A stretch of 64,000 nucleotides of DNA from Alphaproteobacteria bacterium (GTDB taxonomy: Bacteria > Pseudomonadota > Alphaproteobacteria > RF32 > CAG-239), in assembly GCA_017444525.1 (NCBI GenBank), contig JAFSWL010000044.1:25499-89498 (forward strand), read 5' to 3'. Both the position numbers and the translations under genes were made by a program. Below are positions 9,345 to 50,944 of the stretch, piece after piece. Under the pieces are notes generated by a model. It saw only the letters and a program-made list of their open reading frames with translations. It had not been told where the DNA came from and searched no databases. The first letter of the stretch is position 1. Every line of letters begins with the position of its first letter.

Positions 9345-9399
9345 TAAATTATAAATATATTATTTAACTCCGTTGAAAAGGCAACGGTAATATTTTTTT

Positions 9400-9807: not shown

Positions 9808-9840
9808 CTATGGGTACAATGTAAACTCGTTTGTCCATTA

Positions 9841-9880: not shown

Positions 9881-9926
9881 AGGAACCAGGAAATTTATTG
9901 GTAAAAATCGCGAATTTCCTGACAAG

Positions 9927-11337: not shown

Positions 11338-11341
11338 GTCG

Positions 11342-12025
11342 ATGAGCGGAAAGAGATTAGTGAATGCATATAAAAATATTGATAAGAATCAGGCTTACAG
11401 CTTGAAAGACGCTATCAATATCGTAAAAGAAAATGCAACTGCAAAATTTGATGAGACCATCGATTTGGCAATTAACTTGGGTGTTGATCCGAAACACGCC
11501 GATCAAATGATCCGTGGCGTTTGCCAGTTGCCGCACGGCAACGGTAAGACCGTTCGCGTGGCTGTGTTTGCGCAAGGCGAAAAGGCTGATGAAGCTAAGG
11601 CTGCCGGTGCTGATATTATCGGTGCTGAAAACTTGGTTGATTCAATTTTGGCCGGTAAGGTTGACTTTGACAGATGTATCGCAACTCCGGATATGATGGG
11701 GATGGCCGGTCGTGTGGCTCGCGTTTTGGGTCCGAAGGGCTTGATGCCGAACCCGAAACTCGGTACGGTTACCACCGATGTTGCCACAGCCGTTAAAAAT
11801 GCCAAAGCAGGAGAAGTTCAGTATCGTGTTGAAAAGAACGGTATTGTTCATGCCGGTGTGGCTAAGGCTTCCTTCAGCAGTGATCAAATCTATGACAATG
11901 CCAAATTATTCATTGAAACGATTTTGAAGGCTAAACCTGCCAGCCTGAAAGGAACTTATTTGAAGAAAATTTCGATTAGTTCGACTATGGGTGTGGGCGT
12001 TAAGGTTGATTCTTCTAATTTATAG
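11342..12025 (+). CDS. rplA: 50S ribosomal protein L1
   Basis: [25 protein letters not shown]...[11 protein letters not shown] is the L1 signature. The ATG at 11342 lies just after the rplK stop. Confidence 0.96.
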
Positions 12026-16200: not shown

Positions 16201-17709
16201 GTTACTTGACATCAAGCTTACGCTAACATCAGAACTTGTGGTTTGAGATGCAACTTCTTGGTATGCCTCCCAATCGGTCAAGCACTGAAGCGTTCTCGGA
16301 ACACAGATGTGATCGCGTACTTTGTCCTGAGTTTCATCGTCGAAAACAGTGATGAAATCAATGTTGCCGACAATCGAATCCTTATAGACGATCAAAGCAG
16401 GATTATCAAACTTGTAGTCAACTGCCTTTTTAGCCGGCTTATAGAGATATACAAGCTCATTGGTCTTATGCGAATAACCGACATAAGTAGCCGTAATCTT
16501 GTTCTCCAAAAGGGCCTCGGAATAACCGGCGCGCTCAGAAGTTCTTGGTGTAGCTGTTGTAGAATTTTCGTCAACACGATAGTCCTCATAATCAAAGCTG
16601 ACTTCAATATTGTCATCTTTATATGTGGCACGCTCGTGCATCAGAGAATATTCTGTTACCACCAAATCTTCAGTCGTTCCGTTTGCAAGGTCGGCAGAGT
16701 AGGTGTCGGTTTTGCGCCAGACTGTCCACTTTCCTTCCGTGCGGTTTTCCGATTCGCTTCCCTTCTTAATGCCGTTTACACGCGACAGTTTGTAGTCAAA
16801 GCTCTTGACATCCTTACTGTAGGGATCTTTGTTTCCGACTTTTCGCTTCAAGATAATAGAGACATTTTCTCGAGTTTGCTCACCTGATTTCCACGTTATA
16901 ATCTTATCGAATTTGCAACGCTCATCAGTTTCATTGATAATCTCTCGAGTTTTGTTCTCTATCTCCACTTTCTTGATGGCATCATCTTCCAGAACCGAAC
17001 GCGTTGTATACGCGTAAACCGGCAGAGTGAACGTTTCCGGATTGAGCTTATTCGTTTCCTTCAAAACGAGATCAACCTTGTATTCGGTATTGTAAACACC
17101 GGTTACATAAGAAGCACGTGTACGCGCCTTGGCTGAAATCTCGGTATTCTTCAGGTGCCGAAAATCGGCTCGTACCAGTGTTACACTGGGATAGTAGTAG
17201 ACGTTACCGCCGTACTCAACCGTATAACTGGTAATTTTGACCGGAATGCTCATAACCTGGGCATCACCGTAGCTGTGGTAGACAGTATCCAACTCTACAT
17301 CGTTGCCATCACTATCCTTTGCGGTAGCACGAGCAATTCGTTCAGAGATAGGACGAATGTCAAGCTGCTCCTTTGTGATTTGATAATCTTTGCGCGCCAG
17401 ATCGGAATAGGCATCCAAACGCGGCGGCTGTTGGTTATCGAAAACCACATCGGTTTTAACACCATCCTCGGTTCTCCAGATTTTAATCGAGGCAGTCATT
17501 TGATCACTGACTTTAGTTTTAAGCGCAGTGTCACTATAATGCCGCAATCCGGCTTCATATACGTAGCCGGCAACAACTGGAATCGCCTCACTGTCAGTGT
17601 CGGTGGTGCGAGCTGTGTCTAACGTCGCCTTTTCGCAGGCGGAAAACACCATAATGATGGCAAAAAACGCCATCATAGAAACGAAAACTTTTCTTAATCC
17701 GTTGTTCAT
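13225..17709 (-). CDS. Giant modular lipoprotein (about 1494 aa): lipobox signal, N-terminal domain, five ~180-aa repeat modules and a conserved C-terminal domain. Function unknown.
   Basis: MNNGLRKVFVSMMAFFAIIMVFSAC is a signal peptide with a lipobox Cys. Module landmarks (TDWEAYQ, TDWTAYE, TDWSSNE x2, TNWSSKE) recur about every 180 aa. The N-terminal domain, one module and the C-terminal domain are homologous to the ORF at 32402..34696. No SD; the leader is A-rich. Confidence 0.85.
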   Translation of the reverse strand: MNNGLRKVFVSMMAFFAIIMVFSACEKATLDTARTTDTDSEAIPVVAGYVYEAGLRHYSDTALKTKVSDQMTASIKIWRTEDGVKTDVVFDNQQPPRLDAYSDLARKDYQITKEQLDIRPISERIARATAKDSDGNDVELDTVYHSYGDAQVMSIPVKITSYTVEYGGNVYYYPSVTLVRADFRHLKNTEISAKARTRASYVTGVYNTEYKVDLVLKETNKLNPETFTLPVYAYTTRSVLEDDAIKKVEIENKTREIINETDERCKFDKIITWKSGEQTRENVSIILKRKVGNKDPYSKDVKSFDYKLSRVNGIKKGSESENRTEGKWTVWRKTDTYSADLANGTTEDLVVTEYSLMHERATYKDDNIEVSFDYEDYRVDENSTTATPRTSERAGYSEALLENKITATYVGYSHKTNELVYLYKPAKKAVDYKFDNPALIVYKDSIVGNIDFITVFDDETQDKVRDHICVPRTLQCLTDWEAYQEVASQTTSSDVSVSLMSSNEVAKGYWKYVNQTRRLNTVATLYDGSSKDNTWEAVVPNAFVYEREGKKHVFDNISFAATQLGGSINHSGDKDGFSIYDYSDAINVIYGDNVQRTTAPGVVKVSNNKVVGYEIRNKKLDITYERVVASLDFVTKFANGTETTDPVSKEFPRSLTVTTDWTAYESVNTENTAEPSVTLVQSSSKSEDDWTWKEETRNISAAVTLASSKQTNGWTSVDPNNIVFTRQSVTADFGKLTFTAIKVASSATLAKSEDLTDTYTYSNTISVSYGNSTTNDMQNSTAPGKIIVQKGKTVTDYEIRNPKLVVSDNDVTASLDFITKYSDGSENSEAVSKVFARSLVCNTDWSSNEVNNSELTGSASVTLKSNNKIEDGNWSYKKEIRDITTIASLAGSQQTNGWTSEDPNSITYSREGKTYTFDALSFSATEAGHSVQLTSDEATSTTYTYSDKIDVAFGGNTKSSTAPGKIVVAKTKTVTDYEIRNPKLVVSDDNVTASLDFITKYSDGTENSEAISKVFARSLVCNTDWSSNEINNSELTGSASVSLKSNNKIEDGNWSYKKEIRDITTIASLAGSQQTNGWTSEDPNSITYSREGKTYTFDALTFSATEAGHSVQLTSDEATSTTYTYSDKIDVAFGGNTKSSTAPGKIVVAKTKTVTGYEIENPKITVNQDNVTTSLTWVTLYSDGTKKTEEVNKIFNRNFKVLTNWSSKESDNSQTTGSAKVDLTSSSDKTDGYWSYTAETRSISTTAKLKGSTQENKWESKDPNKIVYTREGKTHDFGILSFSASESGASVKQKSDNINETVYSYSDKISVSYGSNSFDSSAPGTITVAKPWNPDFPDSYGKFTDVKVTASKTEGHNSWLYVVSIHFENGTLPLLIRQNASAPDAIDKSMFTSSTDSRLNSAIYITSWGKWINAIAYDASSYMSWDDTDGDNIGMLAYSTATMWGWDDGHTTSGDNKHPTVFTDKYSAKLSENNTLLTIYNKSGKVFATYKSAK
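14281..15360 (-). repeat. Two tandem 540-bp copies (exactly 180 codons each) inside the giant lipoprotein gene
   Basis: 14281.. and 14821.. align at an offset of exactly 540 bp. The first 60 nt are identical. A hand count gives roughly 43 mismatches in 540, concentrated at the module end. Confidence 0.9.
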
Positions 17710-17978: not shown

Positions 17979-19283
17979 CTAATCAAATCTACGACTTTCA
18001 GTCGGTGCATAATCACTGAGAGAATTACGGTTGAGCTCTTGCTTCAATGTTTTGTCAACCTTGGGCGATTTCGGAAGCGGGAATACTTTTGCACCACCAA
18101 AATCAACAGCTTCTTCTTCCATTTGCTTTTTTCTCTCAAGCTCATGGCGCAGATGCTCTTTTTTCTTCATATCTTTTTCGGCACGTATACGAGCCAGCTC
18201 TTGCGCTTCTTCGTATTCTTTCGCCGGATGATTATACTTTATGATTGAACTTACATTCGGTGCCGGAACATGATTTGGATCAATAACCGGAGTCATACCG
18301 AAAGGCGAGAGTTGAGCCGGAGCTGCAGCAGCCGGAGTTGCGGCAGCCGGAGCGGCATAAGGCATCGGAACTGTCGGTAATGGGATAAATTGTCCGGTAT
18401 AAGCATTATAAATGTATTGACCGCCTATTTGTACAGGTTGCGCTACCGGAACCGGAGCTTGCGGCGAGCTTATTGGCGGAGTCGGTACGGTCTGTGCTTC
18501 CGGAGCAGAAACATTTGTCGGTGCTGTGGCTTGCTCCGAAAACGTATTGCCCTCGCTAATCGGAAAATCTTTAGCCTCTATAGTTACGTCGTTAGGCAAG
18601 CGCAGCATCATATAGCCGCTACCGCCGCCATAAGCCGGACCGGACAAACCAATTGAATAAAATCCACCGATATAACCATAATCCATATCAATGTAATCAA
18701 TGGCAAACATGGTTTGTATGGTGGTGGTACCGATGGTTGTCATGCGGCAGCTGTAACCGTTATCCTGAATCAAAACATTATTAACATTTTTAACATGCAA
18801 CAAAGTTTTACTCGGACGGCAAGTCGGAGTTTGACCATTATAAGTTACATTCCAGTTTAAAATCAAATTCAGAGCCATAGTATTCTGCGGACTAACTGAA
18901 ACATCGGTGATTTTTACATCATCAATATACATATAAGCCGGAGTTACGCCCACCGTAATTGGTACCGAAACATATTCTTCGGTACATGAGTGAGTTTGAG
19001 CGTTGGCCTCGCAAACCAAAGCTTTCTGTCGTGCATTGCTGTCAAATAAATGCAATAAAGTATTGAAAATATATTCCTTGGACTGAGACAATTTTGCCGG
19101 TGCGCATTGTTTGGAGCGACAAACGATAATTGAAGTCGGCATCTGTAGCTGCGGTTGTGCCGCTTGCTGTATTTGCGGCTGCGGCTGTATATTCGGCATC
19201 TGTTCGGTATACTGTGCCTGTGCTGTATGTGTGCCGACGGTAAACATACCGATAACTGTGAGAAATCCTATTTGTTTTAACAT
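17979..19283 (-). CDS. Secreted Pro/Gln/Ala-rich protein with a Lys/Glu-rich C-terminal tail. Function unknown.
   Basis: Signal peptide MLKQIGFLTVIGMFTVGTHTAQA. Low-complexity PQPQIQQAAQPQLQ and PAAATPAAAAPAQ tracts flank a globular middle region. The C-terminus is AEKDMKKKEHLRHELERKKQMEEE. Confidence 0.75.
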   Translation of the reverse strand: MLKQIGFLTVIGMFTVGTHTAQAQYTEQMPNIQPQPQIQQAAQPQLQMPTSIIVCRSKQCAPAKLSQSKEYIFNTLLHLFDSNARQKALVCEANAQTHSCTEEYVSVPITVGVTPAYMYIDDVKITDVSVSPQNTMALNLILNWNVTYNGQTPTCRPSKTLLHVKNVNNVLIQDNGYSCRMTTIGTTTIQTMFAIDYIDMDYGYIGGFYSIGLSGPAYGGGSGYMMLRLPNDVTIEAKDFPISEGNTFSEQATAPTNVSAPEAQTVPTPPISSPQAPVPVAQPVQIGGQYIYNAYTGQFIPLPTVPMPYAAPAAATPAAAAPAQLSPFGMTPVIDPNHVPAPNVSSIIKYNHPAKEYEEAQELARIRAEKDMKKKEHLRHELERKKQMEEEAVDFGGAKVFPLPKSPKVDKTLKQELNRNSLSDYAPTESRRFD

Positions 19284-19400: not shown

Positions 19401-19922
19401 ATGATGAAATATTTAAAATTTTTGAGCGCGGTTATGCTGTTATTTGCCGTTATTTCTTCTGCCGCCGCAGCTAAGAGATATAAGGCTGTCGACGGCGATT
19501 CGCTGGAACAAGCGGAGAGACGTATTCGTTTGGATGGTATAGATGCACCGGAGTTTATACAAACTTGTTATAATGCTGATAATACGGAATATGCCTGCGG
19601 TTTAGAAGCCCTGCAATATTTGGAAAAACTGTTGCAAAATAGTTCCGTACATTGTGAATGCGCTGTTCAGAAAGATAAATACGGACGCGAAATTTGCGAA
19701 TGTTTTGCTGATGATATATCTATCAATCAAGCCATGGTGTTTGGTGGTTATGCCGTAAATTATCGCAAAGATGAATATATTGAAGCCGAGCATAACGCCA
19801 GAGAAAACAAGCGCGGAATATGGCGCGGAAAATTTATGCGTCCGGCACTGTTTCGCACTTTGGAACGCTTAAAAAGCAAAGCCGCTGCAAAAAAGTATTC
19901 CGCGGCGGCTGATTGTGAATGA
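19401..19922 (+). CDS. Secreted thermonuclease (staphylococcal nuclease, SNase-like) family protein
   Basis: Signal peptide followed by VDGDSLE...IRLDGIDAPE...DKYGREI...NQAMVFGGYA...AEHNARENKRGIW, the SNase-fold motif order. Confidence 0.8.
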   Translation: MMKYLKFLSAVMLLFAVISSAAAAKRYKAVDGDSLEQAERRIRLDGIDAPEFIQTCYNADNTEYACGLEALQYLEKLLQNSSVHCECAVQKDKYGREICECFADDISINQAMVFGGYAVNYRKDEYIEAEHNARENKRGIWRGKFMRPALFRTLERLKSKAAAKKYSAAADCE

Positions 19923-26494: not shown

Positions 26495-29400
26495 ATGAAA
26501 AAGTTTAATAATAAATCCGTACTGGAGCGAGGTGGCTTGATGATAGAAGCCTTAGCCATGCTTGGTTTGATAGCAGTGGTTACCCCGACCATGTATAAAA
26601 AATCCGCGGAGAGGACGATGGAAGTTGAGGATATCAATACCGCGACTTCAATGCGCACGATTATGGGGGCGGCTGAATCATATATGTCATCTAATTACAA
26701 CGACATTATGAAAGTTATGGAAGAAGATACTTCGCATCAGCACACTATATCGGGCAGAAAAATCGGCGTTATGGATATTCCGATGGCGGATTTGACTCCT
26801 TATTTGCCTTATAAATTTAATGAAGAAGGTGAGCTATATAATTATAAGTCTCCGAAGATTCGTATTGTTCGTGCCGGTGACAATTTAACGGCGTTTGCAC
26901 TGTTTCCGGCTAAGGTAGACGGTGAACACGGCATCGGTCAAGAAAGAACGGTGCGTATAGCTTCACTTATCGGGGCTAACGGCGGTTATATCTCCAGCAA
27001 AGAAAATGAAGCCAAGCAAGCACGCGGTGTCGGCGGTGTGTGGAATTTGGACGGAGATTATTATTCAGCTGTATTTAACGGTGTTGAAACAGATAATCAA
27101 AATCAGTACTCTTTGGTTACATCTTCTTCCAATGTGGTTAATGGTGCCAATGCTATGGCAGAATCGGATCCGACTCAGTTTGTACAACGTACTAAACAAG
27201 AAGGTTCGGGCTGGCGCAATGCGATGCGTACTGATTTATATATGGGATCGGGGCCGGATAGCGCGCAAGATCCGGATGACCGCGAGCATCAAGATGACTT
27301 TTTCAGTATTTATAACGTGAATGAGATGATTATCGGTGCAGATCGTGATGCCAAACAAGAATTGCTTAAGGCTGTCAGAAATGAACCGGAAACCGCATTC
27401 AGTGCTGATCCGAGTAGCTATGGCTTATATGTAGCCGGCAGCGGTTCCAGAGGAGAGGGCGCCGGTAATGCTTATATCAAAGGTACATTGATTGCCGCCG
27501 GTAACAGATTGTGGGCCGGCAATGAAACACTTAAATATACAGGTACTAATCTGGAATTTGACGGCACTAACTTTAAAATCGGCAAAAATCAGACAGATGC
27601 CAGTAAAGATGCAGATAATTATGTTATGTCCGGTCATGCTGAAAAGGGTAAGAGCACACTTGATATTATGGGAGATAAAATTAATGTTGCGGAAGCCGGA
27701 GATATCGGGAACTATAAGCCTAAAAATGATGTTCAGAAGAAAGCAAATGTAGTAGTACATACTACCAACAAAGATACTCATACAACCGGAACGGTAAATC
27801 CTCCTGCATATTCAGCTGACAGCAAAGCACCGGATTTTGGCGTTGATATTGACGGCAATATGGTGGTTGAAGGTGTGTTGGCGGCAGGTCAGCTCGATGT
27901 TAACAACATCCGTACGGCTAATATTTCCGTAGGTTCGGAAAATATTGACGATGAATATAAGTGGATGGATGTTGATAAAAACGGTGTACACGTTCACCAG
28001 CCGGCAAGCGGTGCCTATAAAGGTACGCAGATTGAAGCGCGTGACAAACTTATTACCATGCGTGTCGGTTCAGATAATGCAATTGATAAAAATACCGACA
28101 GCAATGGTGTAGAGGCAGATAACGCGGCGCAAATCATCATGGATGGTGCAGATGCCGCAAATGGCAGTATTATCCAAAAGGTTAAGGGAACTAACGGCAA
28201 AATAGCGTTGGCCAACGACAATTTGGGCATCAATATAAAAAATCGGGCCATTACCATCGGCAATACCGATGCCGCCGGCACCACAAAAGATGATGCGACG
28301 CAATACTTTGTTGGTTTCGGCAAAGGCGGTAATATTCACATGACAAACAGCAATTTGAAAATTTCTGATGCCAACAATAATGCTTTGTTTACCGTCCGTG
28401 GTCTTGAGGATAGTAAAGAAGATCAAGGAATTGTTGATAATACAACGCGCAACAGTAGCCCGTATAACATCGCCGCACACGGCAACATCCTGTTTACGGA
28501 TGGACTGAATAATGGCAATTCCAGAGCTCGATATTTAGCAATGTCCAATAATGGAGACGGATTTGCGGCGGTAAACATTATCAAAGGAGATGCTGACGGT
28601 ACTATAAACACTGCCGGAACCGGTGTTGTGTATATTGATATGGATACAGGCAGCGAGAGCGCTTCTATGCAGGCTGTCAGTGGCACAGACTATCAAATAA
28701 AAGATGCCGGAGGCACGGTAAGGAGAAATGTTCAAGGAGGCTCAATTTATATTCGAAAGGGCTTGATTGATGTTGTGCCGGATAAGAACAATATCGGCCA
28801 AGTTGCTAAAACTCGCAATAATACCACCGGAGAGCTTACGGGGGTTACTGTTACTGGCGGCAATGACACTGCCGATCAAGGTAGGGGCGTTATTCGAGCC
28901 AGCCGCTTTGTGGCCAATAACATAACAACCGAAGGAAATCCGGTTAAAGTTCCGGCTTTCTTCACTCAAGCTAAATTGGAAGAATACAGCGGTTCCGGAA
29001 CAAATCGTTATGATACCTATATGGTTAATCCGGCCTATACGTCGGTGATGAACGATATTAAATTGGTGTCGCGCGGCGGCGCTCGTTTGAGCGATATTTT
29101 GCCGACGTTTATCACCAAAGGTATTTATACGGCTAAAAACAACTATTCCGAATTGGCTTTCCATGGCGACACCAGCGGTTCCGGCTCAAGCGGTCATGGC
29201 GTGTCGTTGGAACCATCCAACTTATTCTTAAAAGCGGATGGTACACTTAATATATATCAGCCGAGAACCGGATATACAAGTGATCCGGCCTCGCCGATTA
29301 TTGGTGTGGTGCCGGCTCCGCAGTGTCCTCCGGGATATGCGCGTATGATTACGGTTACTCCGGCCAGTATTCGTATGGCGGAAGCCGGTCGTTTCCGCAA

Positions 29401-30718
29401 CCCGTCGCCGAGCAGCTTTAACGGTTATAAAATAGACGTTGACAGCTTTACCGATCCGACCAACCAAGATTATATCACATACGAAGGGAAGAATTATGAC
29501 TTGGATGACCTCAATAATATGAGAGATGAGAATGGAAATGTTGTTTCCTTGCCGGATAGCGTTAAGCAAAATATGGGACAATCGGTGCAGTTATATAACA
29601 CTTATATCAATAGTGAATCTGCCGGTATACGCGATATGCGCCGCGCCAATCCGTCTTATAAAACCGGTGTCCACATGACCGGCGGGGAAGAATGCTTTAA
29701 TTGGGGGGCTGACGGCGAATGCTTGGATAGTAATCACTACGGATATAAGATGGAAATGCACGTCGCTGAAGCCGGAGACATTGATAAAAACAGAAATGAA
29801 AATAAGGTTCATGATTCCCATGATTCAACCATGGGGCAAACCAATGTAATTAATGTACCGGCATCTTCTTCCTCAGTCTGGAGCTCATATAAGGAAGACG
29901 GTTACGGCGATAAAGGAGGTACGGTTTACCATAGCGGCAATACGAATGCCAGCGGCAAATATAAAGCCAATATCGTTAAAGATAAAGTAACCCTTTCGAT
30001 AATGGACAGAGATGAAGACGGTAATGTGTTATGGACCGACCATGCTGTAACCAATGAAATTGATATGTCGGATACCCGCTTATTGGTAGATCGTATCAAA
30101 AACGTCTCCTTTGAAGATAGAGACGGGGCTCCGACGTATGTACTTACTTCCGGCAATGCCGATGCATTTGCACCGATTACTTTCCAAAAGAGTACGTGGT
30201 TGAAAACGGCAGCTATTCCGGTAGCTAAAACGACAGTTAGCGACACGCAACGTCAAAGTGCTTACGCTTCCGGTTGGGCAATTTTAATGGGCTTTTTATA
30301 TCCGCAACATGGTTATCGCAATGTGTTGAATACATTGGGATTTGACGTTGCCAATAGTTATCAAACTTATCCAATGTATGAGGATGATGGTGAAAACTAT
30401 ATTGGCGGATTTAACAGTAGAAAAGCGAAGGAGCGTAATTTTAGAGTCAGCCCTAGCAGTCCTAAAGACGATTATTTCTTCTGGAATATATTTCCGGTTG
30501 AACAAGAGAGCTTGGAAGCATTTATTACCACTTATTGCTACTTTGACCAAGATAATAAGGCATTCAAACAGTTTAACAGCAGTGAGGAGGTTAAAGATCA
30601 CTTGCCGATGATTGATTATATTACAACGTTCCCGAGCGGTTATGAACCGGAAGGACATAATAAGAATTATCGTAAACTGTTGAACGACCCGTCAATGAAG
30701 TATAACGAATTGTGGTAA
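26495..30718 (+). CDS. Giant (1407 aa) protein with a prepilin-type N-terminal signal and pilin-like N-terminal domain
   Basis: AAGGAG RBS. N-terminus MKKFNNKSVLERG|GLMIEALAMLGLIAVVTP has a short basic leader, Gly, Glu at +5 and a hydrophobic helix. This is the same G-x-x-M-I-E pattern as the 184-aa pilin at 41243..41797. A ~1170-aa Gly/Asn/Asp/Thr-rich extension follows. Confidence 0.8.
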   Translation: MKKFNNKSVLERGGLMIEALAMLGLIAVVTPTMYKKSAERTMEVEDINTATSMRTIMGAAESYMSSNYNDIMKVMEEDTSHQHTISGRKIGVMDIPMADLTPYLPYKFNEEGELYNYKSPKIRIVRAGDNLTAFALFPAKVDGEHGIGQERTVRIASLIGANGGYISSKENEAKQARGVGGVWNLDGDYYSAVFNGVETDNQNQYSLVTSSSNVVNGANAMAESDPTQFVQRTKQEGSGWRNAMRTDLYMGSGPDSAQDPDDREHQDDFFSIYNVNEMIIGADRDAKQELLKAVRNEPETAFSADPSSYGLYVAGSGSRGEGAGNAYIKGTLIAAGNRLWAGNETLKYTGTNLEFDGTNFKIGKNQTDASKDADNYVMSGHAEKGKSTLDIMGDKINVAEAGDIGNYKPKNDVQKKANVVVHTTNKDTHTTGTVNPPAYSADSKAPDFGVDIDGNMVVEGVLAAGQLDVNNIRTANISVGSENIDDEYKWMDVDKNGVHVHQPASGAYKGTQIEARDKLITMRVGSDNAIDKNTDSNGVEADNAAQIIMDGADAANGSIIQKVKGTNGKIALANDNLGINIKNRAITIGNTDAAGTTKDDATQYFVGFGKGGNIHMTNSNLKISDANNNALFTVRGLEDSKEDQGIVDNTTRNSSPYNIAAHGNILFTDGLNNGNSRARYLAMSNNGDGFAAVNIIKGDADGTINTAGTGVVYIDMDTGSESASMQAVSGTDYQIKDAGGTVRRNVQGGSIYIRKGLIDVVPDKNNIGQVAKTRNNTTGELTGVTVTGGNDTADQGRGVIRASRFVANNITTEGNPVKVPAFFTQAKLEEYSGSGTNRYDTYMVNPAYTSVMNDIKLVSRGGARLSDILPTFITKGIYTAKNNYSELAFHGDTSGSGSSGHGVSLEPSNLFLKADGTLNIYQPRTGYTSDPASPIIGVVPAPQCPPGYARMITVTPASIRMAEAGRFRNPSPSSFNGYKIDVDSFTDPTNQDYITYEGKNYDLDDLNNMRDENGNVVSLPDSVKQNMGQSVQLYNTYINSESAGIRDMRRANPSYKTGVHMTGGEECFNWGADGECLDSNHYGYKMEMHVAEAGDIDKNRNENKVHDSHDSTMGQTNVINVPASSSSVWSSYKEDGYGDKGGTVYHSGNTNASGKYKANIVKDKVTLSIMDRDEDGNVLWTDHAVTNEIDMSDTRLLVDRIKNVSFEDRDGAPTYVLTSGNADAFAPITFQKSTWLKTAAIPVAKTTVSDTQRQSAYASGWAILMGFLYPQHGYRNVLNTLGFDVANSYQTYPMYEDDGENYIGGFNSRKAKERNFRVSPSSPKDDYFFWNIFPVEQESLEAFITTYCYFDQDNKAFKQFNSSEEVKDHLPMIDYITTFPSGYEPEGHNKNYRKLLNDPSMKYNELW

Positions 30719-30735: not shown

Positions 30736-30768
30736 ACACCGACGGGAAATCCGCCGGTGTTTTTCTTT
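30736..30768 (+). terminator. Rho-independent terminator of the giant pilin-like gene
   Basis: ACACCGACGG-gaaat-CCGCCGGTGT followed by TTTTTCTTT. Confidence 0.8.
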
Positions 30769-30770
30769 GA

Positions 30771-31240
30771 TATTACCGTCATCGCTCGTGTGGAGTGCTG
30801 TATATAATATTATCGCCATCGCTCGTTCGGCATAGTTTATTATAATACTGTCATACCTCAATAATATATTATTGTCATCGCTCGTTCGGCGCAAGTCCGA
30901 ACGTCAAGCGATCTTCCGTATTGTTCTTCCCCTTACGAGGAAGAGGAATGAGGGGATAATATACTTCCTTACTCAATGCACTTTCCTTGAAGAATATTAA
31001 AAAATGATTTGAAGATCCATTGACCTCACTTAGTTCGGAGGGATGACCATTTGGTTTTATAACAAAAACGTCATGCCTCGATTCCGACAGGAATCGTCCA
31101 GGCATCTTCCGATTTAAAAAACAATGATTCGAAGATGACTTTATTATTTTGACGCATTCGCTTACGGCTCAGCGAGGGATAACTTTATATTTTAATACAT
31201 TCGCCTACGGCAAAGCAAAGGATGATCATTTGCTTTTAAA
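30771..31240. repeat. ~470-bp non-coding tract of degenerate hairpin-forming GTCAT-type short repeats in both orientations
   Basis: Three direct copies of TATTAyyGyCATCGCTCGT at 30771, 30808 and 30868. Hairpins at 30877..30912 (ATCGCTCGTTCGG/CCGAACG..AGCGAT) and 31068..31105 (ATGCCTCGATTCC/GGAATCG..AGGCAT). Paired copies CATTCGCTTACGGC / CATTCGCCTACGGC occur near 31153 and 31197. An inverted GTCATCCCTCCGAAC copy lies near 31030. Confidence 0.7.
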
Positions 31241-31281
31241 ATGCGAACAGCACCTTCCCGATTAAGGAAAAGGTGCTGTTC
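31236..31281 (-). terminator. Rho-independent terminator downstream of the beta-barrel-like gene
   Basis: Perfect 12-bp stem GAACAGCACCTT (31245..31256) / AAGGTGCTGTTC (31270..31281), with a T-rich tail on the minus strand. Confidence 0.75.
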
Positions 31282-31298
31282 TTATAGTAAAACGTTTA

Positions 31299-32162
31299 TC
31301 ACTTACTTGGAGACTGGTATGGACGCATGTCATTACGCATGTTCCACACGTCAGCTTTTGTATACCCTCTAGCATCCATTGCCTGAGTATTATACGAAGC
31401 ATGGCGCATGATACGGATGCGTACGCCAGCGTAAATACCACCCTGTCCGAACACCTTGTTGGTATTCAGAACGATGTTCTGCTGAACGCCATAGTGGACG
31501 CCAGCGAACACGCTGACGGGACTAAACTTGAAGTTATGGAAAAACTCCAAAAACCCGTACACTCCACTGGTAAACTCGCGGATATCGAGATCCGATGTTG
31601 TCTTAGTGGTTGTCGTAGTTATTCCATCAGGCGTTGTCTCCTTCCCAGTCCATGTCGCCTTTTCCTGGTCAAGGAATGACGATAGCTGGAAGGTATAGGC
31701 AGCTCCCAGTTTAATACCTGAGTGGTGGTTGTTCCACTGCAGGATTTTACCTGAGATGCGCAGCTCCGTCTGGAACTGCAAAAATGCGTTCTGCCTGTCG
31801 CTCTCCGCGTCTTCTACGGCCTTACGGATGACCTCGCGGACATCCGCAGTCCAAACACGTCCCTCATAACCAAAGGACGCACCACCACCATACGTGGTGT
31901 TTCCGGCGAAGGTTCCGACATCTCCGTGAAAATCCAGATACCAACCGTGGTTGTCCACGTCGTAATATATTGTCGGTTCGAGGTTGTTACCCTCGAACTT
32001 TTTAATTTCGTCACGGTGCGGCCCCTTGTGGCGGAGCTCGTGATGGTAGTTATACTTCACCGACTCCGATACAGGAGCGAACTCCATATCGGAAATCTCA
32101 ACCTGAGCATTTGCGCTCATTACCATTACCATCATTGCGGCGGCTGCCATATATCTTTTCAT
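31299..32162 (-). CDS. Secreted protein, putative outer-membrane beta-barrel (287 aa)
   Basis: Signal peptide MKRYMAAAAMMVMVMSANAQ. Alternating Gly/aromatic segments (GASFGYEGRVW, KLGAAYTFQL, GVYGFLEFF, VFAGVHYGV, GIYAGVRIRI). No SD; the A-rich leader shares the ACAWTCAAAAAAA motif. The beta-barrel call is tentative. Confidence 0.65.
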   Translation of the reverse strand: MKRYMAAAAMMVMVMSANAQVEISDMEFAPVSESVKYNYHHELRHKGPHRDEIKKFEGNNLEPTIYYDVDNHGWYLDFHGDVGTFAGNTTYGGGASFGYEGRVWTADVREVIRKAVEDAESDRQNAFLQFQTELRISGKILQWNNHHSGIKLGAAYTFQLSSFLDQEKATWTGKETTPDGITTTTTKTTSDLDIREFTSGVYGFLEFFHNFKFSPVSVFAGVHYGVQQNIVLNTNKVFGQGGIYAGVRIRIMRHASYNTQAMDARGYTKADVWNMRNDMRPYQSPSK

Positions 32163-32401
32163 ATTTTTTTTGTTTTTTTGATTGTGAATAAATTTGTTGG
32201 TTTCCCTCGGGGTGCGTCTTGCAATCATCATACGGCACAGCCGCTCTATCCCTCACACGCCGCGCTGCGGAATGCTTGGCAATAATCATGATTGATGCAA
32301 AGAACGCCCCTCGAGGTGCCAAACTTAAAAAAAATTACATATCCATGGGGAGGAAATCGCACGGACACGTCCGCACACTATCGACCCCATGCGGGGAAGA
32401 G

Positions 32402-34696
32402 TTATTTCCAAGAACCCATGTAGGTACCAGGGTAGGTGTCTGTAGCCGTAAGACGACCATCGGATACCTGCAGATTATACCTAGAGGTAGAAGTAGAACA
32501 ATGACCATTTACGAAATGACCTTCGTCCCAATTCTGAGACTTGGCGTTCTTATAGTCCTTGTTAGCCTTCTCTTTACCATCCCTAGACCAAGTCATCTGA
32601 GAGACCTGATCTGAAGCAATAGTGTTAATCCATACGTTCTCAGCTTCCTGATAGGTTGCTGAGTTGAAGTCGTGATTCGAGGTGTACTCGAAGTACTCAA
32701 ATGCCCAGCTAGGCACTCTTGCACCTGACTTCACAACTACTGGAAGAACACCCTTCTCGAAATGGAGAGACCAGATATACACAAAGCCATCGTGGCTCAT
32801 GTTGTTTGATACGGTCTGCTTTACTTCGAGAAGATCGCCCCACTCACGGGGGAAGAATCTCTCCTCCTCTGGTATCGGAGCAGCGGACTTCACCTTAATG
32901 GTGCCGTTGCCGGTAGAGGACTTGACACTACTTCCCCAGACGTACTTCAATACGTCCGAGTAGGGATAGTTAGTATAGTTTCCTTCAGTTACCCCGTTGC
33001 CGAGGTTGTCAGTATTGCTTACATTGAGGGTATTAGCCTCAAAACTGAAGGTCTTATCACGGTATGTGCAAGAGAAATTTGTAGGCTCCACTGAGCTCCA
33101 CTTATTCTCCTGCTGGCTACCATTAAGGGTAGCGATACTAACCAAGCTACGAGTCTCGCGACTCCACTTAGCCTCAGCCCCTTCGAGTGTCTTAGATACA
33201 GGCTCAGTTGAGGTTACAGTAACATTTACCCCACTGGTGGAGTATTTGTTATTCAGTTCCTCACTGCTCCATGCACCAAGATTTCTCAGAATGCGAGAGT
33301 CTGAGAAATCAAACTTTACTCTCTCCTGCCCTCCATCTGAGTAGTTGATGACATACTCAAGATGCCAGTTGACCTTATCATCAGATAGGGTCTCTGTACA
33401 CTTAGATTTGTCCCAACCCTCGCTCGTGACGTGGGCATTCTCCTTGAGAAGCACAACAGACTCCGAAGCATCCTGGGCATAGCCGAGGTAGCTTGTGGAG
33501 ATGCTATTATGCAGTCTCTTAGCGGTGTAACCGCCGCGTGGAGAATTAATGTCTTCCTCGTAAGTATTTCTCTCACGGGGATTCCAGTTTTCAAAATCAA
33601 AGGTATGCTTGAGACCGAACTTGGTGTTAGCAAATTCGGCTTTCTCATGATACAAACCATAAGACGTGTTAACCGGAGCGACATTATTCGAGAGGACTCC
33701 GCTGAAAGTATCGGTGCGACCCGACACAGTCCAGTTCTCGTCCTTGCTCACCTGAGAGATACCTCCTATAGACAAGGGGTTGTCAGACAACCAGTTGTAA
33801 CCAAACGCGGTCACAACCTTCTCATACTCGTCGATCGTTTCGATGCGGCGGTTGAGAACCTTACTATAGGTCTGCTCGTGCTTCGAGCCGTCCTTCTTCG
33901 TCCATTCGATGACGATATCGCACCTTTCGGTGGTCTCGTCAAGTGGATTACGATCATAACTCAGGATCTTGCCAGAGACGATGTCATTCTCCTCGAGCTG
34001 GTATACACGTATTGTATCGCCCAATGTAACTGGGAACACGACATTCTTGTCGTAGTTCTCAATTTTACACTGAGCCTTCCATACGAAACCTCTGCACACA
34101 GAATCGGTGATAACCATCTCACCGCGGGTACCGTACTTGGTGGTACCGGGGAGCTGGTTAATAGCCTCTAAGTAAGGCTCACCTATTTTGACGTAGGGAG
34201 CATCGTAATTCTTACCATTGATAGTGCGCACGATGCGCTCCATCTTGCGCTGGCAGTAAACGATATTTCCGTCCTCTACGTCAGAGGTCGTCTTACCAGA
34301 GTCCTCATAGACCTTGCGGTCGTCAGAGGAAGACTTCGTCGAAGTCTGCATTGCTCCGTGTGATGTGCGCTCCTGCGAGTAAGCAAGAGAGACTGTCTTT
34401 GGACCAGCATACTTGTCGTTCTGGTGCCAACAAGAAATGTTGGCACGACCAGTATCACTGATCTTGTTGTTGCCGTCTTTGACTGTATATTCGATATCAA
34501 CGTCGGCGGTTCCGTCGTTGATAATAATATACGTGACATCCCAATCGGGAGTGTCATCCACCGGCACAACCGGCTCTGAATCTTTCTCGGATGTAGTTGA
34601 CATGTTGTTTGTCAACTTCTCGCACGAAGCGAGACCGAAACATACTACCATGGCCAGCAAGAACATGCCAGCGAGGTTCATAAAACTCTTTCCCAT
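32402..34696 (-). CDS. Modular lipoprotein (764 aa), the single-module paralog of the giant lipoprotein at 13225..17709
   Basis: MGKSFMNLAGMFLLAMVVCFGLASC has a lipobox. Blocks ETTERCDIVIEWTKKDG, ENWTVSGRTDTFSG, one AWSSEELN module and the C-terminal FVYIWSLHFEKGVLPVVV align with ETDERCKFDKIITWKSG, GKWTVWRKTDTYSA, the TDWSSNE modules and WLYVVSIHFENGTLPLLI of the 1494-aa protein. Confidence 0.85.
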   Translation of the reverse strand: MGKSFMNLAGMFLLAMVVCFGLASCEKLTNNMSTTSEKDSEPVVPVDDTPDWDVTYIIINDGTADVDIEYTVKDGNNKISDTGRANISCWHQNDKYAGPKTVSLAYSQERTSHGAMQTSTKSSSDDRKVYEDSGKTTSDVEDGNIVYCQRKMERIVRTINGKNYDAPYVKIGEPYLEAINQLPGTTKYGTRGEMVITDSVCRGFVWKAQCKIENYDKNVVFPVTLGDTIRVYQLEENDIVSGKILSYDRNPLDETTERCDIVIEWTKKDGSKHEQTYSKVLNRRIETIDEYEKVVTAFGYNWLSDNPLSIGGISQVSKDENWTVSGRTDTFSGVLSNNVAPVNTSYGLYHEKAEFANTKFGLKHTFDFENWNPRERNTYEEDINSPRGGYTAKRLHNSISTSYLGYAQDASESVVLLKENAHVTSEGWDKSKCTETLSDDKVNWHLEYVINYSDGGQERVKFDFSDSRILRNLGAWSSEELNNKYSTSGVNVTVTSTEPVSKTLEGAEAKWSRETRSLVSIATLNGSQQENKWSSVEPTNFSCTYRDKTFSFEANTLNVSNTDNLGNGVTEGNYTNYPYSDVLKYVWGSSVKSSTGNGTIKVKSAAPIPEEERFFPREWGDLLEVKQTVSNNMSHDGFVYIWSLHFEKGVLPVVVKSGARVPSWAFEYFEYTSNHDFNSATYQEAENVWINTIASDQVSQMTWSRDGKEKANKDYKNAKSQNWDEGHFVNGHCSTSTSRYNLQVSDGRLTATDTYPGTYMGSWK

Positions 34697-34778
34697 ATAA
34701 TGTGATTTTTTTGAATGTAATTTTTTTCTTTTTAAACGGTTCATCTCGCTTATGAAAATCCTCAACTCGTGAAAATCT

Positions 34779-34800
34779 TCATCGCCATCGCTTTGGCGGG
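34779..34800 (+). repeat. Isolated copy of the ATCGCCATCGCT repeat core, upstream of the 764-aa lipoprotein gene
   Basis: The exact 12-mer ATCGCCATCGCT at 34781..34792 matches 30812..30823 in the repeat tract, in the same orientation. Confidence 0.6.
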
Positions 34801-35129
34801 AGAAATTTGTAATACGCTACAGCTGAAAACCATACTGCAACGCACAAGTCGCCCCACCATAATGATGACGAAGCGGTATATGATGAACTGTCTAATCAAA
34901 CAAAAAATCCAATGAAAACATTTTATCGTACAAGTGATAAAAACGTTTTCCCGAATAATTGTTATGATAATAGACAGTGATAATTCTTTTGCAATTATAA
35001 AGTTATCATAAATTTCAATGTTTTGCAACAAAAAAATGTATGTTTTTTGAAAAAATTGACAAATAATAAGAATATTACGTCAATACAAGATGTTAATGAT
35101 TAGTTAATTAATTTTGCAATTAAAATAAC

Positions 35130-41242: not shown

Positions 41243-41797
41243 TTAAAAGAATGTCCATACGATGGTATTGTTGTTGGTAGAGGTACAAGCGGCTACAGCT
41301 TCGGCAATAGTAACATTACCTGCTGTTGCCAATTTTTCGGTATTGTTAATTTTAACCGACCACAAGCCTGAAGTTTTCCCTTGTCCCCATTCTTTAGTAG
41401 AGAGTTCAATACAGGAATCTTGCGGTATCATTCCAAAGGAAACGGCAAAAGCTTTGTTGGTTCGCTCGCCTTTGTTGGCAACATTAAGCAAGACTGTTCC
41501 GCCGTAAGTATTGACCATTGAATCTCCGTCTATCATATCATCCGGAACCAGATGAGATTTTTTAATCAGGTTCATGTTAGGATTGCCACCGGTAGATAAA
41601 GCAGTATATACTTTGTGTCCTGCAAAAAGGGCGCGAGTACTGGCCGTAATCTGCGTTAATTGATCAATTGTTTTATTGACACGGTAGACATTCATTGCCT
41701 TAGAATAACCGGCAATACCGCCGACAGACAGCACACCGATAATTGCCAAAACCCCGAGCATTTCAATCATTGAGCGACCGGATTCGTTTATTTTCAT
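41243..41797 (-). CDS. Type IV pilin-like protein (184 aa)
   Basis: MKINESG|RSMIEMLGVLAIIGVLSVGGIAGY is a prepilin-type leader, with Glu at +5 and a hydrophobic helix. A C-terminal Cys pair (C...C) is present. GGGAGGA RBS. Confidence 0.85.
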   Translation of the reverse strand: MKINESGRSMIEMLGVLAIIGVLSVGGIAGYSKAMNVYRVNKTIDQLTQITASTRALFAGHKVYTALSTGGNPNMNLIKKSHLVPDDMIDGDSMVNTYGGTVLLNVANKGERTNKAFAVSFGMIPQDSCIELSTKEWGQGKTSGLWSVKINNTEKLATAGNVTIAEAVAACTSTNNNTIVWTFF

Positions 41798-49053: not shown

Positions 49054-49701
49054 ATGGAAAAAAAAGTAGGACTTTTAAAGTTCGGAGGAATCAACGTAAA
49101 AATTGTTGAGGACGATGTAACGTGCGAGCTTGCTGATTGCATCGTTGTTCCTGAGTTTAACAATTGTGCTTCATACGGTGGTGTCGGCGGTGCTTGTGTT
49201 CGCCGCGGTTTGCGCAAGGGAATGGAAGCATACGACAAGCGCGCTCAGCAGCAGCCGTTTGCGTTTGGCGATACCTTCTTGACCGAAAGTGGACGTGATA
49301 ACCTGTTTCTGGGGCACGTAGTTACAGTCGGGGCACCTGCTGAAGAACAGTTTGAGGCTGTTTTCAAGTCGGTCTACAACATTATCGGCGATTGCAATCA
49401 GAGGCCGTATGCCTCGATTCGCCGCATTGCGATTCCCGAGCTTGGAACCGGCATTATCGGCAACCTGACGCAGGAACAGAGTGCTCGCGCCATCATCGGT
49501 GCCGTTGATGCTTTCTCTCGGGTTTGCGGTGCTACCATAGTCGATGAAGTTGTGCTGTGTGTCTACAAGGCGTCCACGGCACCTGCCGAAAAGGTACTTG
49601 CTGACGGCTCTTTCCGCGATTGCAAGTTCGAAGTCGGACAGAAAATCTTTGATCCGATGGACTGGCTGCACGGGATGGGGCTTGAGTTCAGCAAAGCCTG
49701 A
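49054..49701 (+). CDS. Macro-domain (ADP-ribose binding/hydrolase-like) protein
   Basis: ADCIVVPEFNNCASYGGVGGA...HVVTVGAP...RRIAIPELGTGIIGNL follows the macro-domain motif order (xVNAAN-like, GGG-like, IafPxIstGi). G+C is visibly higher than in the flanks. No SD. Confidence 0.65.
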   Translation: MEKKVGLLKFGGINVKIVEDDVTCELADCIVVPEFNNCASYGGVGGACVRRGLRKGMEAYDKRAQQQPFAFGDTFLTESGRDNLFLGHVVTVGAPAEEQFEAVFKSVYNIIGDCNQRPYASIRRIAIPELGTGIIGNLTQEQSARAIIGAVDAFSRVCGATIVDEVVLCVYKASTAPAEKVLADGSFRDCKFEVGQKIFDPMDWLHGMGLEFSKA

Positions 49702-49714
49702 CAAATAAAAAAGT

Positions 49715-49752
49715 AAGGAGTAATGCTTGAAGCATTGCTCCTTATTTTTTTG
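49715..49752 (+). terminator. Rho-independent terminator after the macro-domain gene
   Basis: AAGGAGTAATGCTT-ga-AGCATTGCTCCTT followed by ATTTTTTTT. Confidence 0.85.
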
Positions 49753-49760
49753 CATAAAAA

Positions 49761-49840
49761 TTCAAGCAAATATCTGCGGCTTTTCAATATTTAAAGGATA
49801 AATTCGAGTGAATTCCAAATTATGACCGATTCAAAGAATA
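49761..49840 (+). pseudogene. Decayed duplicate of the last ~27 codons of the J-domain gene
   Basis: 49761..49840 aligns without gaps to 48871..48950, about 65 of 80 identical by hand count. It translates to FKQISAAFQYLKDKFE*IPNYDRFKE* versus FKQISAAYQHLKEKFERIPNYDLFKE*. Confidence 0.8.
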
Positions 49841-49860
49841 AGACTTTTTAACGAAAATTC

Positions 49861-49889
49861 TTGCCAAAATACAAAAACTGCGGTATACT
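49861..49889 (+). promoter_or_regulatory. Sigma70-type promoter B, paralogous to promoter A (drives the 250-aa gene)
   Basis: TTGCCA at 49861..49866, a 17-nt spacer, then TATACT at 49884..49889. The preceding AACGAAAATTCTTGCC is homologous to AACGAAATTTTCTTGAC of promoter A. Confidence 0.5.
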
Positions 49890-50191
49890 GAAATCCTAAA
49901 AACATTAAGAATTAGGTATAACAAATATATATTATTAATATTTCCACTTTATAAGCAGGATAAGTTTTGCGCTTGTGTCTTATGATATGAATGCAGAATA
50001 ACGTTGAAATAAAAGATGAAAAACGAACAGTTGGCGAAGCACAGTAACCGACGAAATCTCAAAATACTTCGTGCAGTCAGATATTTTTTAATGTCAGATT
50101 GTTGATTCTTTTTTTCAATTCCGAGAGATAATTTGGAAGCTAAATTGCTCGTTTGCGAGTCCTGAAAGGGAGTAAGTAAACGGGATATAGT

Positions 50192-50944
50192 ATGAACGCA
50201 ATGAACAAGAATTTCCGTACCTCTGAGAACGTAGTTTTCACCAAGGTCAATGAGAAAGATGTTCAGCCCACCGGTAACTTCATCACCGTTCGTGGTAACA
50301 AGGCTGTTGCCATTATGGACGGCGAGGAGGTACCCATGCCCGAGCTGTTGTTCAACGAAATAGGAGTAGGCTACTACTTCGTCGACTTCTACCAGCATGG
50401 TAAGAAGATGGCGAAGAAGCACGGTACTTATGTGGCCGTGAAGCAGGAGCCGATCCGCGTCTGGAAGAACATCAAGCCCGGTGAGGTACTCAAGACTGTC
50501 ATCGACGGTTACGAGGAGCACAGCATTCAGCTCGACGACACCAAGGTCGCTGCTCAGAACGTGATCAAGAACGAGTTCTATGCCATCCCCAAGGATGTGC
50601 TGGAGAAGAAGTATCGTTTTGATCACAGTGAGTTTGATTTCGACCTCTATGTGCCGAAGTCGGACGCTGTGTCTTCATGGGTGTACTCCGACGTCAACGT
50701 GTTTGGCGTGCTCTGGGGCGGTCTGGAGTTTCTGACGACTCCGATGATCAACATCACCGATCCGGACGACTGTTACGGATGTAACTATGTTGTCTGGTGG
50801 GGCAACGACGGACGCCTGAGCTCATACAAGGTCCTGGGCTTCTTCCGCGCCTGCGGTCAGAAGTTCTACGACCAACCGATGGCCGAGCCCAAGTCGGTGC
50901 TGGAAGCTACATTTCAGCCACCAAAGGAGCTGATGGGTTGCTAA
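50192..50944 (+). CDS. Hypothetical 250-aa protein, high GC3, foreign-looking
   Basis: Clean ORF with strong C/G-ending codon preference that differs from the neighbours. It generates a long antisense shadow ORF (49949..50626). Only a weak GGGA lies upstream. I recognise no motif. Confidence 0.7.
   Translation: MNAMNKNFRTSENVVFTKVNEKDVQPTGNFITVRGNKAVAIMDGEEVPMPELLFNEIGVGYYFVDFYQHGKKMAKKHGTYVAVKQEPIRVWKNIKPGEVLKTVIDGYEEHSIQLDDTKVAAQNVIKNEFYAIPKDVLEKKYRFDHSEFDFDLYVPKSDAVSSWVYSDVNVFGVLWGGLEFLTTPMINITDPDDCYGCNYVVWWGNDGRLSSYKVLGFFRACGQKFYDQPMAEPKSVLEATFQPPKELMGC

Follow-up and report, generated by a model that had tools for sequence, protein, structure and literature searches.

What does a pair of genes encode when its products match no known protein family and its codons and translation starts are unlike those of the surrounding genome, and did it reach that genome recently? 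This question is raised by a locus in a 64,000-nt stretch of DNA from an Alphaproteobacteria bacterium (contig JAFSWL010000044.1, positions 25,499 to 89,498), referred to here as the window, in which a gene for a 764-aa lipoprotein (32402-34696, minus strand) is followed on the same strand by a gene for a 287-aa predicted outer-membrane beta-barrel (31299-32162). Along the minus strand, the two-gene unit runs from 425 nt of non-coding DNA (35121-34697) through the lipoprotein gene, a 239-nt spacer and the barrel gene to a terminator. An initial annotation of the window had described the pair as a compositionally deviant island, which implies recent acquisition; its coordinates and sizes (764 aa, 239-nt spacer, 287 aa) are all correct. 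The reading favoured here, which we put a little below an even chance, is that the pair encodes a hypervariable surface adhesin-type lipoprotein with a dedicated small barrel for its anchoring or export, under the control of a conserved RNA, the lipoprotein belonging to a family that crosses phyla. Both protein families and the spacer RNA are uncharacterised.

The lipoprotein begins with a signal peptide and lipobox (residues 1-25, GLAS before the Cys), followed by a disordered, Pro-rich linker of ~25 residues. The lipobox, MGKSFMNLAGMFLLAMVVCFGLAS-C, conforms to the pattern [LVI][ASTVI][GAS]C, and its Cys is nearly invariant across the family. After the linker come all-beta N-terminal domains (residues 48-432, nt 33401-34555), and then, as delimited with domain hidden Markov models (HMMs), a single module of ~170 aa (residues 433-603, nt 32888-33400) and a C-terminal domain of ~150 aa (residues 611-764, nt 32405-32866). 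In an AlphaFold2 (AF2) model (predicted local distance difference test (pLDDT) 80.6, predicted template modelling score (pTM) 0.36), the protein is a string of all-beta-sandwich beads, with the ~25 residues after the Cys disordered. Foldseek comparison of the whole model with the PDB and BFVD found only elongated all-beta look-alikes with low template modelling (TM) scores among adhesins, pili and fibres: the CFA/I CfaE-CfaB pilus, Saf, FaeG, cadherins, and phage tail fibres or receptor-binding proteins. Together, these features fit an extracellular stalk carrying a binding domain at its tip.

A paralog of 1494 aa is encoded at 13225-17709 (minus strand). The two lipoproteins had been described as homologous from end to end, and BLASTP agrees, with E-values of 1e-37 over the N-terminal part and 1e-35 over module and C-terminal domain together; matches to the extra modules reach 1e-18. 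By domain HMMs the 764-aa protein has one module and the giant five in tandem, set between its N-terminal and C-terminal domains, and among relatives the module number ranges from 1 to 5. Modules 3 and 4 of the giant (14254-15336, minus strand) are 96% identical over 180 aa, a sign of recent tandem duplication or gene conversion, and would provide a substrate for changes in module number. The 540-nt module repeats exceed the period limit of 500 in Tandem Repeats Finder and were confirmed at the protein level. Upstream of the giant gene are a 434-aa gene (17979-19283) with a secreted, Pro/Ala-rich product that has no Pfam match, and an SNase gene (19401-19922). This arrangement is syntenic with a locus in a human-gut metagenome-assembled genome (MAG), L011, where the counterparts are an SNase gene and a 376-aa gene (9703-11538), and where a short lipoprotein, a barrel-like gene, the SNase gene, the 376-aa gene, a giant lipoprotein and a pilin gene are held in one locus. 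The window retains the trio of SNase, 434-aa and giant lipoprotein genes at 13.2-19.9 kb, and the trio is conserved in this distant human-gut MAG.

The initial annotation could assign none of the domains to a known family, which accords with the searches made here: the 764-aa lipoprotein, the 287-aa protein and the 1494-aa lipoprotein have no sequence relatives in Pfam, NCBIfam or the PDB, and neither do the profiles of the pair's families (A1 and A2). The lipoprotein family is also rare, with 26 close clusters among 5.8 billion proteins and 151 representative clusters among 1.84 billion. Elsewhere, the module and C-terminal domain are found fused to BspA-type LRR_5, DUF285, Dockerin_1, MBG_2, Big_2 and Omp28 domains; the C-terminal domain also stands alone in proteins of ~200-230 aa, and, in tandem copies, forms part of giant tail-fibre-like proteins with Bflower_2 or CBM_5_12 domains. 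We infer that the lipoprotein is surface-exposed, because a five-module rod such as the 1494-aa protein would be too long for the periplasm, because the fusion partners of its domains are extracellular, and because the genes are hypervariable.

The partner protein begins MKRYMAAAAMMVMVMSANA followed by Q, with a signal peptide that ends in SANA (cleavage between ANA and Q). Its AF2 model, made from an alignment of 13 sequences (pLDDT 73, pTM 0.65), is all-beta with about 8-12 long antiparallel strands, together with a conserved N-terminal segment of ~45 residues, a conserved Thr-rich hairpin and a helical C-terminal tail. The leading Foldseek matches in the PDB are nearly all outer-membrane barrels, namely NspA (4.5e-4), Ail, Pla/OmpT, OmpA, OmpW and OmpX (E-values from 4.5e-4 to 1e-2, TM relative to target 0.6-0.7). 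What had been a guess from strand periodicity is therefore upheld as a prediction, and at that level the protein has both the Sec signal peptide and the closed antiparallel beta-barrel of a small outer-membrane protein (OMP). It belongs to no curated OMP sequence family (Pfam, NCBIfam, PDB), and a profile search of 5.8 billion proteins returned 48 clusters only, none of them named or with a Pfam domain.

A genome scan for the family found 18 loci, all in uncultured gut or rumen MAGs; 17 are labelled Alphaproteobacteria, proteobacterium or Pseudomonadota, and one uncultured Eubacteriales. With the barrel HMM, each short family lipoprotein examined in Alphaproteobacteria is seen to have a barrel homolog as the next gene downstream. 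E-values are 1e-148 to 4e-73 in most of the rumen loci (L001-L008, L155 and L158) and 3.5e-47 in L160, and rise in human-gut loci with the distant 750-aa type of lipoprotein (L021 4.6e-9, L009 2.2e-8, L012 9e-4, L010 1.2e-3). The suggestion that lipoprotein and barrel form a dedicated pair is thereby strengthened, and on gene order the pair appears to be an old unit. Adjacent genes for a lipoprotein and an OMP, the latter with the size of an OmpW- or OmpG-class channel, would also suit nutrient uptake, in which the barrel would be a channel and the lipoprotein a substrate-capturing lid or hemophore-like partner, by analogy with SusCD, BtuBG and Slam-dependent receptors. We consider this improbable: there is no TonB-dependent plug, 22-strand barrel or Pfam transporter signal, a stalk of 1 to 5 modules is what an elongated adhesin would have and not a lid, substrate-binding sites are not usually hypervariable, and no metabolic or transport genes are co-localised with the pair.

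The backbone of the window is alphaproteobacterial (IalB, RlmN, CCA enzyme, SufBCD), as had been recognised, and the nearest relative is the rumen MAG RUG10918 (L004). The order CCA enzyme, pilin (in some), lipoprotein, barrel recurs in L001, L002/L003, L005 and L007. Every relative found has the pair at this site, and it is syntenic in at least five that were assembled independently. Between the window and these relatives, the flanking genes are 81-95% (CCA enzyme), 93-98% (IalB) and 95-98% (RlmN) identical, compared with 50-86% for the lipoprotein and 33-92% for the barrel. The hypervariability of the pair at its fixed site shows in flanking proteins of 81-99% identity against 50-57% for the lipoprotein and 33-49% for the barrel in related rumen Alphaproteobacteria. 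Synonymous divergence (dS) of the flanks is near saturation against L001, L002 and L007 (0.9-2.2). Against L004, the flanks have a dS of 0.22-0.30, the lipoprotein gene 0.51 and the barrel gene 0.84, and nonsynonymous divergence (dN) is 4-10 times higher in the pair. This excess of synonymous change points to allele replacement in addition to fast protein evolution.

The non-coding parts of the unit behave in the opposite way to its genes. The 239-nt spacer between the genes (32163-32401, minus strand) is better conserved than either of them, with 75% column identity across six genomes. RNAalifold finds 57 pairs in 7 helices, with 94.3% of cells paired, and 13 pairs are changed on both sides, compared with 5.0±1.6 in shuffled alignments (0/500 reach 13) and no more than 4 when partners are slid; since structure and covariation test both come from one small alignment, these figures are supportive and not final. 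The minimum free energy is -78.8 kcal/mol (z -2.7). In its first part a long stem (AUGGGG...CCCCAU) encloses a variable hairpin, which differs among relatives by compensatory changes, and a run of U8 lies 10 nt after the stem; a CCCC just after the lipoprotein stop codon can pair alternatively with the GGGG of the stem. The second part is a multibranch domain that leads into the A-rich leader of the barrel gene. In L155 and L158 the first part is kept through compensatory changes and the second has been replaced. The RNA has no match at gathering level in Rfam 15 (best in the region E 0.39-0.59, unrelated), and a metagenome scan with the pattern ATGGGGTCGAN{5,9}CGGACG gave, among the matches listed, only chance ones in unrelated GC-rich contigs. 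A Bacteroidota -7 promoter motif (TAAGTTTG) seen in the spacer was dropped as a candidate, not being conserved in relatives. The spacer is a conserved structured RNA, previously undescribed, which may act as an attenuator or processing element combined with a regulatory 5' untranslated region (UTR).

Similar conservation is seen upstream of the lipoprotein gene, in a non-coding region (34697-35121, minus strand) that comprises promoter and long leader. Its alignment from six genomes (A5) contains invariant blocks such as GTTTTCATTGG, TGCAGTATGGTTTTCAGCTG, TCACGAGTTGAG and GAGATGAACCG, and the coding sequence downstream of it is hypervariable. Homopolymer tracts in the leaders of both genes differ in length, being A7/A8/T8 in the window and A5/A7/T7 in L004. 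The unit is closed by an intrinsic terminator hairpin (31234-31292, minus strand), an inverted repeat with 23-nt arms and then a T run, whose architecture is kept in L004, L155 and L158.

In composition, the pair stands apart mainly at the codon level. G+C at third codon positions (GC3) is 0.562 in the lipoprotein gene (z 3.5), 0.580 in the barrel gene (z 3.9) and 0.490 in the 1494-aa gene (z 1.9), against a background of 0.408±0.044 (maximum 0.494) in 37 curated genes of the window. In codon-usage distance, the pair ranks first and second of 42 genes, and the 1494-aa paralog is intermediate. The pair prefers AAG (0.82, against 0.26 in the background), GAG (0.77 against 0.21) and CAG (1.00 against 0.35), and makes less use of CCG (0.18 against 0.68) and TTA (0.03 against 0.20). 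Bulk G+C is only modestly raised (0.48-0.50, against 0.423±0.027, or about 2-3 standard deviations), so that the compositional deviance first reported from hand counts holds for codons and much less for overall base content. The explanation that this is the host's own bias for highly expressed genes was rejected, as rplK and rplA use GAA, CCG and TTG like the rest of the genome. The same deviant usage is seen in all family members of every alphaproteobacterial locus examined, very AT-rich genomes included; therefore it is a persistent trait of the family and not the leftover of a recent transfer. Translation starts differ too. A core Shine-Dalgarno (SD) motif (GGAG, GAGG or AGGA at -18 to -4) precedes 0/3 family genes and 16/37 background genes, and the leaders of the three family genes are 57-65% A with a common motif, ATTCA...A7-9, in agreement with the SD-less, A-rich leaders noted at the outset.

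The impression that the pair looks Bacteroidota-like has a real basis. Full-length homologs with 45-48% identity (P0015, P0023 and P0024) sit in Bacteroidota-type loci (L147-L154), with proteins carrying a type-A sorting domain of the type IX secretion system (T9SS) directly upstream (TIGR04183, 26.8 and 23.5 bits, cutoff 23). The same loci have PARCEL/DUF285 and BspA LRR_5 lipoproteins, a BT4734-like_N protein and TAtcTTTG promoter motifs, and lack SD sequences. In a neighbour-joining tree, the Bacteroidota-type clade is sister to the alphaproteobacterial 764-type clade, and both are inside a larger family. The codon usage of the window lipoprotein correlates with that of the Bacteroidota copies (r 0.69) and of the GC-rich core genes of L150 (r 0.65), versus 0.26 with that of its own genome. 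On the Bacteroidota contig L150, the family gene is itself in a compositionally foreign island, beside a mobile-element gene. Thus, an ancient transfer between phyla is likely, in either direction. Also on L150, a 95-aa open reading frame (ORF) at 10838-11125 preserves the remains of a second C-terminal domain, which suggests turnover of family genes there.

The two phyla differ in how the lipoprotein could be displayed. The Bacteroidota lipoprotein export signal (LES) is C-X-K-(D/E)2 or S-D-D-D-D directly after the lipidated Cys (PMC5080379). Homologs in Bacteroidota context have acidic N-termini (C-G-S-S-K-D-D-A-D-D) that are LES-like but shifted, and the barrel HMM finds no homolog in L147-L154; the 764-aa lipoprotein reads C-E-K-L-T-N-N, which is not an LES, and the alphaproteobacterial copies are without the acidic motif and always accompanied by the barrel. 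This complementarity suggests that the barrel may supply surface display, and is the main indirect argument for that function.

From these data, the proposal of a recent horizontal island from a Bacteroidota donor, with donor codons, SD-less leaders and signal-peptide style retained, can be weighed. It would account for the codon correlations, for the leaders and for the sister clade at 45-48% identity, and atypical composition of the kind expected for a genomic island is found in both genes. The arrangement at the site tells otherwise. CCA enzyme, lipoprotein and barrel share one site in at least five relatives with flanks at dS 0.9-2.2, so presence is not patchy among the relatives found; the codon bias is common to every family member, those of distant human-gut lineages included; and within the window the pair is flanked by no mobility gene, integrase, tRNA or direct repeats (no tRNA or Rfam match occurs anywhere in the window). 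Bacteroidota-type loci, moreover, are without the barrel, and the L150 copy is itself in foreign surroundings. A recent, self-contained island therefore has little chance of being the right description.

Still less can the locus be dismissed as an assembly artefact, a Bacteroidota fragment joined into an alphaproteobacterial contig. Foreign-like codons would be expected of such a chimera, and many family members are on short contigs. In L004, in addition, blastn shows a cassette of 4.1 kb (leader, lipoprotein, spacer and barrel, with the 5' region 34697-35121 travelling along) in the opposite orientation to that in the window, the barrel and CCA genes being convergent there. This cassette is flanked by a 147-nt inverted repeat (9331-9477 and 13547-13693, 95% complementary), which assemblers can mis-resolve, and the inversion may be real or may come from such an error in the L004 assembly. 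A single copy of the 147-nt sequence lies in the window (30990-31136, no strand assigned), in a repeat-rich spacer at the rearrangement breakpoint, and the other relatives have none. Assemblies made independently in different studies (ENA, NCBI and Logan; L001, L002/L003, L004, L005 and L007) nevertheless show the same order, and the conserved leader and spacer are continuous into the flanks, which makes an artefact scarcely credible. For the check on chimerism that had been called for, synteny excludes it on the 35.1-kb side, but the 31-kb side coincides with the breakpoint seen in L004. A model of the cassette as an invertible element or transposon was also rejected, as the inverted repeats flank the cassette in L004 and not in the window, L001, L002, L005 or L007. 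Close to the breakpoint, a direct repeat of ~30 nt (ATATTATyGyCATCGCTCGTkyGG) is present in three copies at 30765-30890, between two convergent terminators, with no further copies in the window.

Phages may also have had a part in the family. According to a phage-interaction explanation, the lipoprotein, the barrel or both would be a phage receptor, decoy or exclusion factor, diversified in an arms race, and phages would have captured the C-terminal domain. The tandem C-terminal domains in tail-fibre-like giants point in this direction, as do the tail fibres and receptor-binding proteins among the BFVD look-alikes and the hypervariability of the pair, with an excess of dS that suggests allele swapping. 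Besides a relative with 47% identity to P0069, one of the carriers of tandem C-terminal domains, an IMG/VR contig encodes a clamp loader, an NAD ligase, NrdD and a methyltransferase. The related viral ORF itself, however, is without the C-terminal domain, and therefore the link to phages is indirect. A tblastn search of 50,697 GenBank phages with the C-terminal domain gave no match, and the structural matches have TM <0.12. We judge the phage explanation to be quite unlikely; it is also compatible with the adhesin reading and does not exclude it. At the level of the family, the lipoproteins are common to Alphaproteobacteria and Bacteroidota, and probably to phages too; the contigs of the distant homologs P0119, P0131 and P0182 are too short for taxon assignment.

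Pilin genes (N-terminus GRSMIEMLGVLAI..., PilS/Bundlin) adjoin family loci in many MAGs, and the lipoprotein could accordingly be an accessory of type IVb-like pili, either a pilus-associated adhesin or an assembly factor. A pilin gene is upstream of the lipoprotein in L001-L003 and L005 (L001 8641-9315), and directly downstream of the giant paralog in L011 (16138-16833), L014 (13407-14090) and L020 (13384-14651). In the window, the gene that converges with that of the barrel (26495-30718, plus strand) encodes a 1407-aa protein without a Pfam domain but with a prepilin-like N-terminus (ERG, then GLMIEAL), and a PilS/Bundlin pilin gene occurs at 41243-41797 (minus strand). No small pilin gene adjoins the pair in the window, though, and no secretin, ATPase or platform genes are nearby. 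Pilin paralogs are numerous, so that adjacency may reflect mere clustering of variable surface genes, and a pilus accessory is very improbable.

Returning to the adhesin reading, the locus would encode a cell-surface system of gut and rumen Alphaproteobacteria, in which a lipid-anchored, rod-like adhesin-type protein is combined with a small outer-membrane barrel. After its flexible linker, the adhesin would have beta-sandwich domains in the N-terminal part, then a stalk built from a varying number of ~170-aa modules, and at the far end a binding domain of ~150 aa. The lipoprotein would presumably be exported by Sec, lipidated, and delivered to the outer membrane by Lol. The barrel, assembled by the beta-barrel assembly machinery (BAM), would be a docking site or conduit that sets the lipoprotein on the outer face, and the giant paralog would use it in trans. 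Expression would be as one unit, from the conserved long leader through the intergenic RNA to the canonical terminator, with translation from A-rich, SD-less starts. The intergenic RNA would probably act as a partial terminator or processing element and as a 5' UTR, setting the ratio of barrel to lipoprotein. The coding parts would owe their hypervariability to replacement of alleles together with rapid change of the proteins, as is expected of an exposed antigen or receptor, and the un-hostlike codon usage would be inherited from, or kept by exchange with, an external gene pool.

Several points weigh against this account. The barrel lacks a C-terminal aromatic beta-signal, ending in ...RPYQSPSK after its helical tail extension. 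It is small, its role in translocation is speculative, and it could be a mere anchor or could serve an unrelated function. In the window, the giant paralog has no barrel beside it. The interaction of lipoprotein and barrel, and exposure of the lipoprotein at the surface of Alphaproteobacteria, are both putative, and so is a binding role for the C-terminal domain. Gene-averaged dN/dS is below 1 (0.18 and 0.07), so that positive selection is at most putative. Finally, the spacer stem and its U run could be a full terminator, with a promoter of its own for the barrel gene, so co-transcription is also putative.

A bolder reading, which we regard as rather unlikely, is that the locus represents an unrecognised two-component route of surface display in Proteobacteria, in which a non-Slam barrel of ~240 residues exports or anchors an adhesin lipoprotein, tuned by RNA, with foreign-style signals kept up by exchange among phyla and phages. 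Beyond the Slam and Bacteroidota LES systems, the passage of lipoproteins across the outer membrane is an unsettled matter, and the pair of lipoprotein and mini-barrel is a compact candidate, directly testable because its Bacteroidota homologs are without the barrel. The locus also shows sharing of surface-protein genes in rumen and gut among Alphaproteobacteria, Bacteroidota and probably phages, and foreign codon usage and translation signals that outlast near-saturation of the synonymous sites of neighbouring genes. It adds a new candidate cis-regulatory RNA, and singles out the putative surface antigen that varies most in a little-known, uncultured alphaproteobacterial lineage of the gut.

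Other features of the window include two more large surface-type genes, namely a 1085-aa ORF with no Pfam match at 55-3312 (minus strand) and a gene for a 1047-aa autotransporter (PF03797) at 60797-63940 (minus strand). Two GC3-rich ORFs without a Pfam match are found at 49054-49701 (GC3 0.54) and 50192-50944 (GC3 0.73), the second of which overlaps a 225-aa ORF on the opposite strand (49949-50626) and is possibly not a real gene. The region 49054-50944 may be a second compositionally atypical patch.

Compared with known systems, the locus is not a SusC/SusD-type or TonB-dependent pair: no Plug, TonB_dep_Rec or SusD match is found, the barrel is of 287 aa, and the lipoprotein is all-beta. O-antigen and capsule loci with JUMPstart/ops, and Bacteroides capsule loci with UpxY-dependent leaders, are variable surface loci with conserved leaders. 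The locus resembles these in having divergent, atypical coding content at a fixed site, bracketed by conserved non-coding leaders. It differs in encoding two proteins and not a biosynthetic operon, and in that its conserved element is a structured RNA of ~240 nt between the genes; no ops, JUMPstart element or NusG paralog was identified, with no search aimed at them.

Surface proteins of Bacteroidota, whether of the LES, BspA or T9SS type, have several features in common with the lipoprotein, namely the homologs at 45-48% identity, the shuffling of module and C-terminal domain, and the A-rich leaders without SD. Unlike the surface lipoproteins of that phylum, it has no LES after the Cys, is hosted by an SD-using alphaproteobacterium, and is always coupled to a barrel. 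The barrel in turn resembles small outer-membrane barrels (NspA, OmpX/Ail, the transmembrane domain of OmpA, OmpW, and the 10-stranded OmpT/Pla) in its predicted fold, signal peptide and size, and departs from them in the extra N-terminal segment, the Thr-rich hairpin, the helical tail, the linkage to a lipoprotein and the lack of membership in any of their sequence families.

Slam proteins combine a periplasmic tetratricopeptide repeat (TPR) domain with a DUF560 barrel of 14 strands, and the C-terminal part of their substrates is a TbpB-like barrel of eight strands (PMC5449769). The two-gene unit is in some respects like Slam and the type XI secretion system (T11SS), as seen in Slam1-TbpB and Slam2-HpuA: a gene for an outer-membrane barrel adjoins a lipobox gene (LASC, 239 nt upstream) whose product is probably surface-exposed, in a proteobacterial host. 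The partner, however, gives no Pfam match to DUF560 (PF04575) at E<=0.1 and is of 287 aa with ~8-12 strands in its model, and only ~45 residues precede its barrel, with no TPR match among them. The all-beta C-terminal domain of the lipoprotein (~150 aa) has no match to TbpB or fHbp by Pfam or PDB sequence. Slam had originally been invoked as a loose analogy, and as an analogy it stands, the shared feature being adjacency to a lipobox gene. Thus, the locus is not a member of the Slam family, but may work like one.

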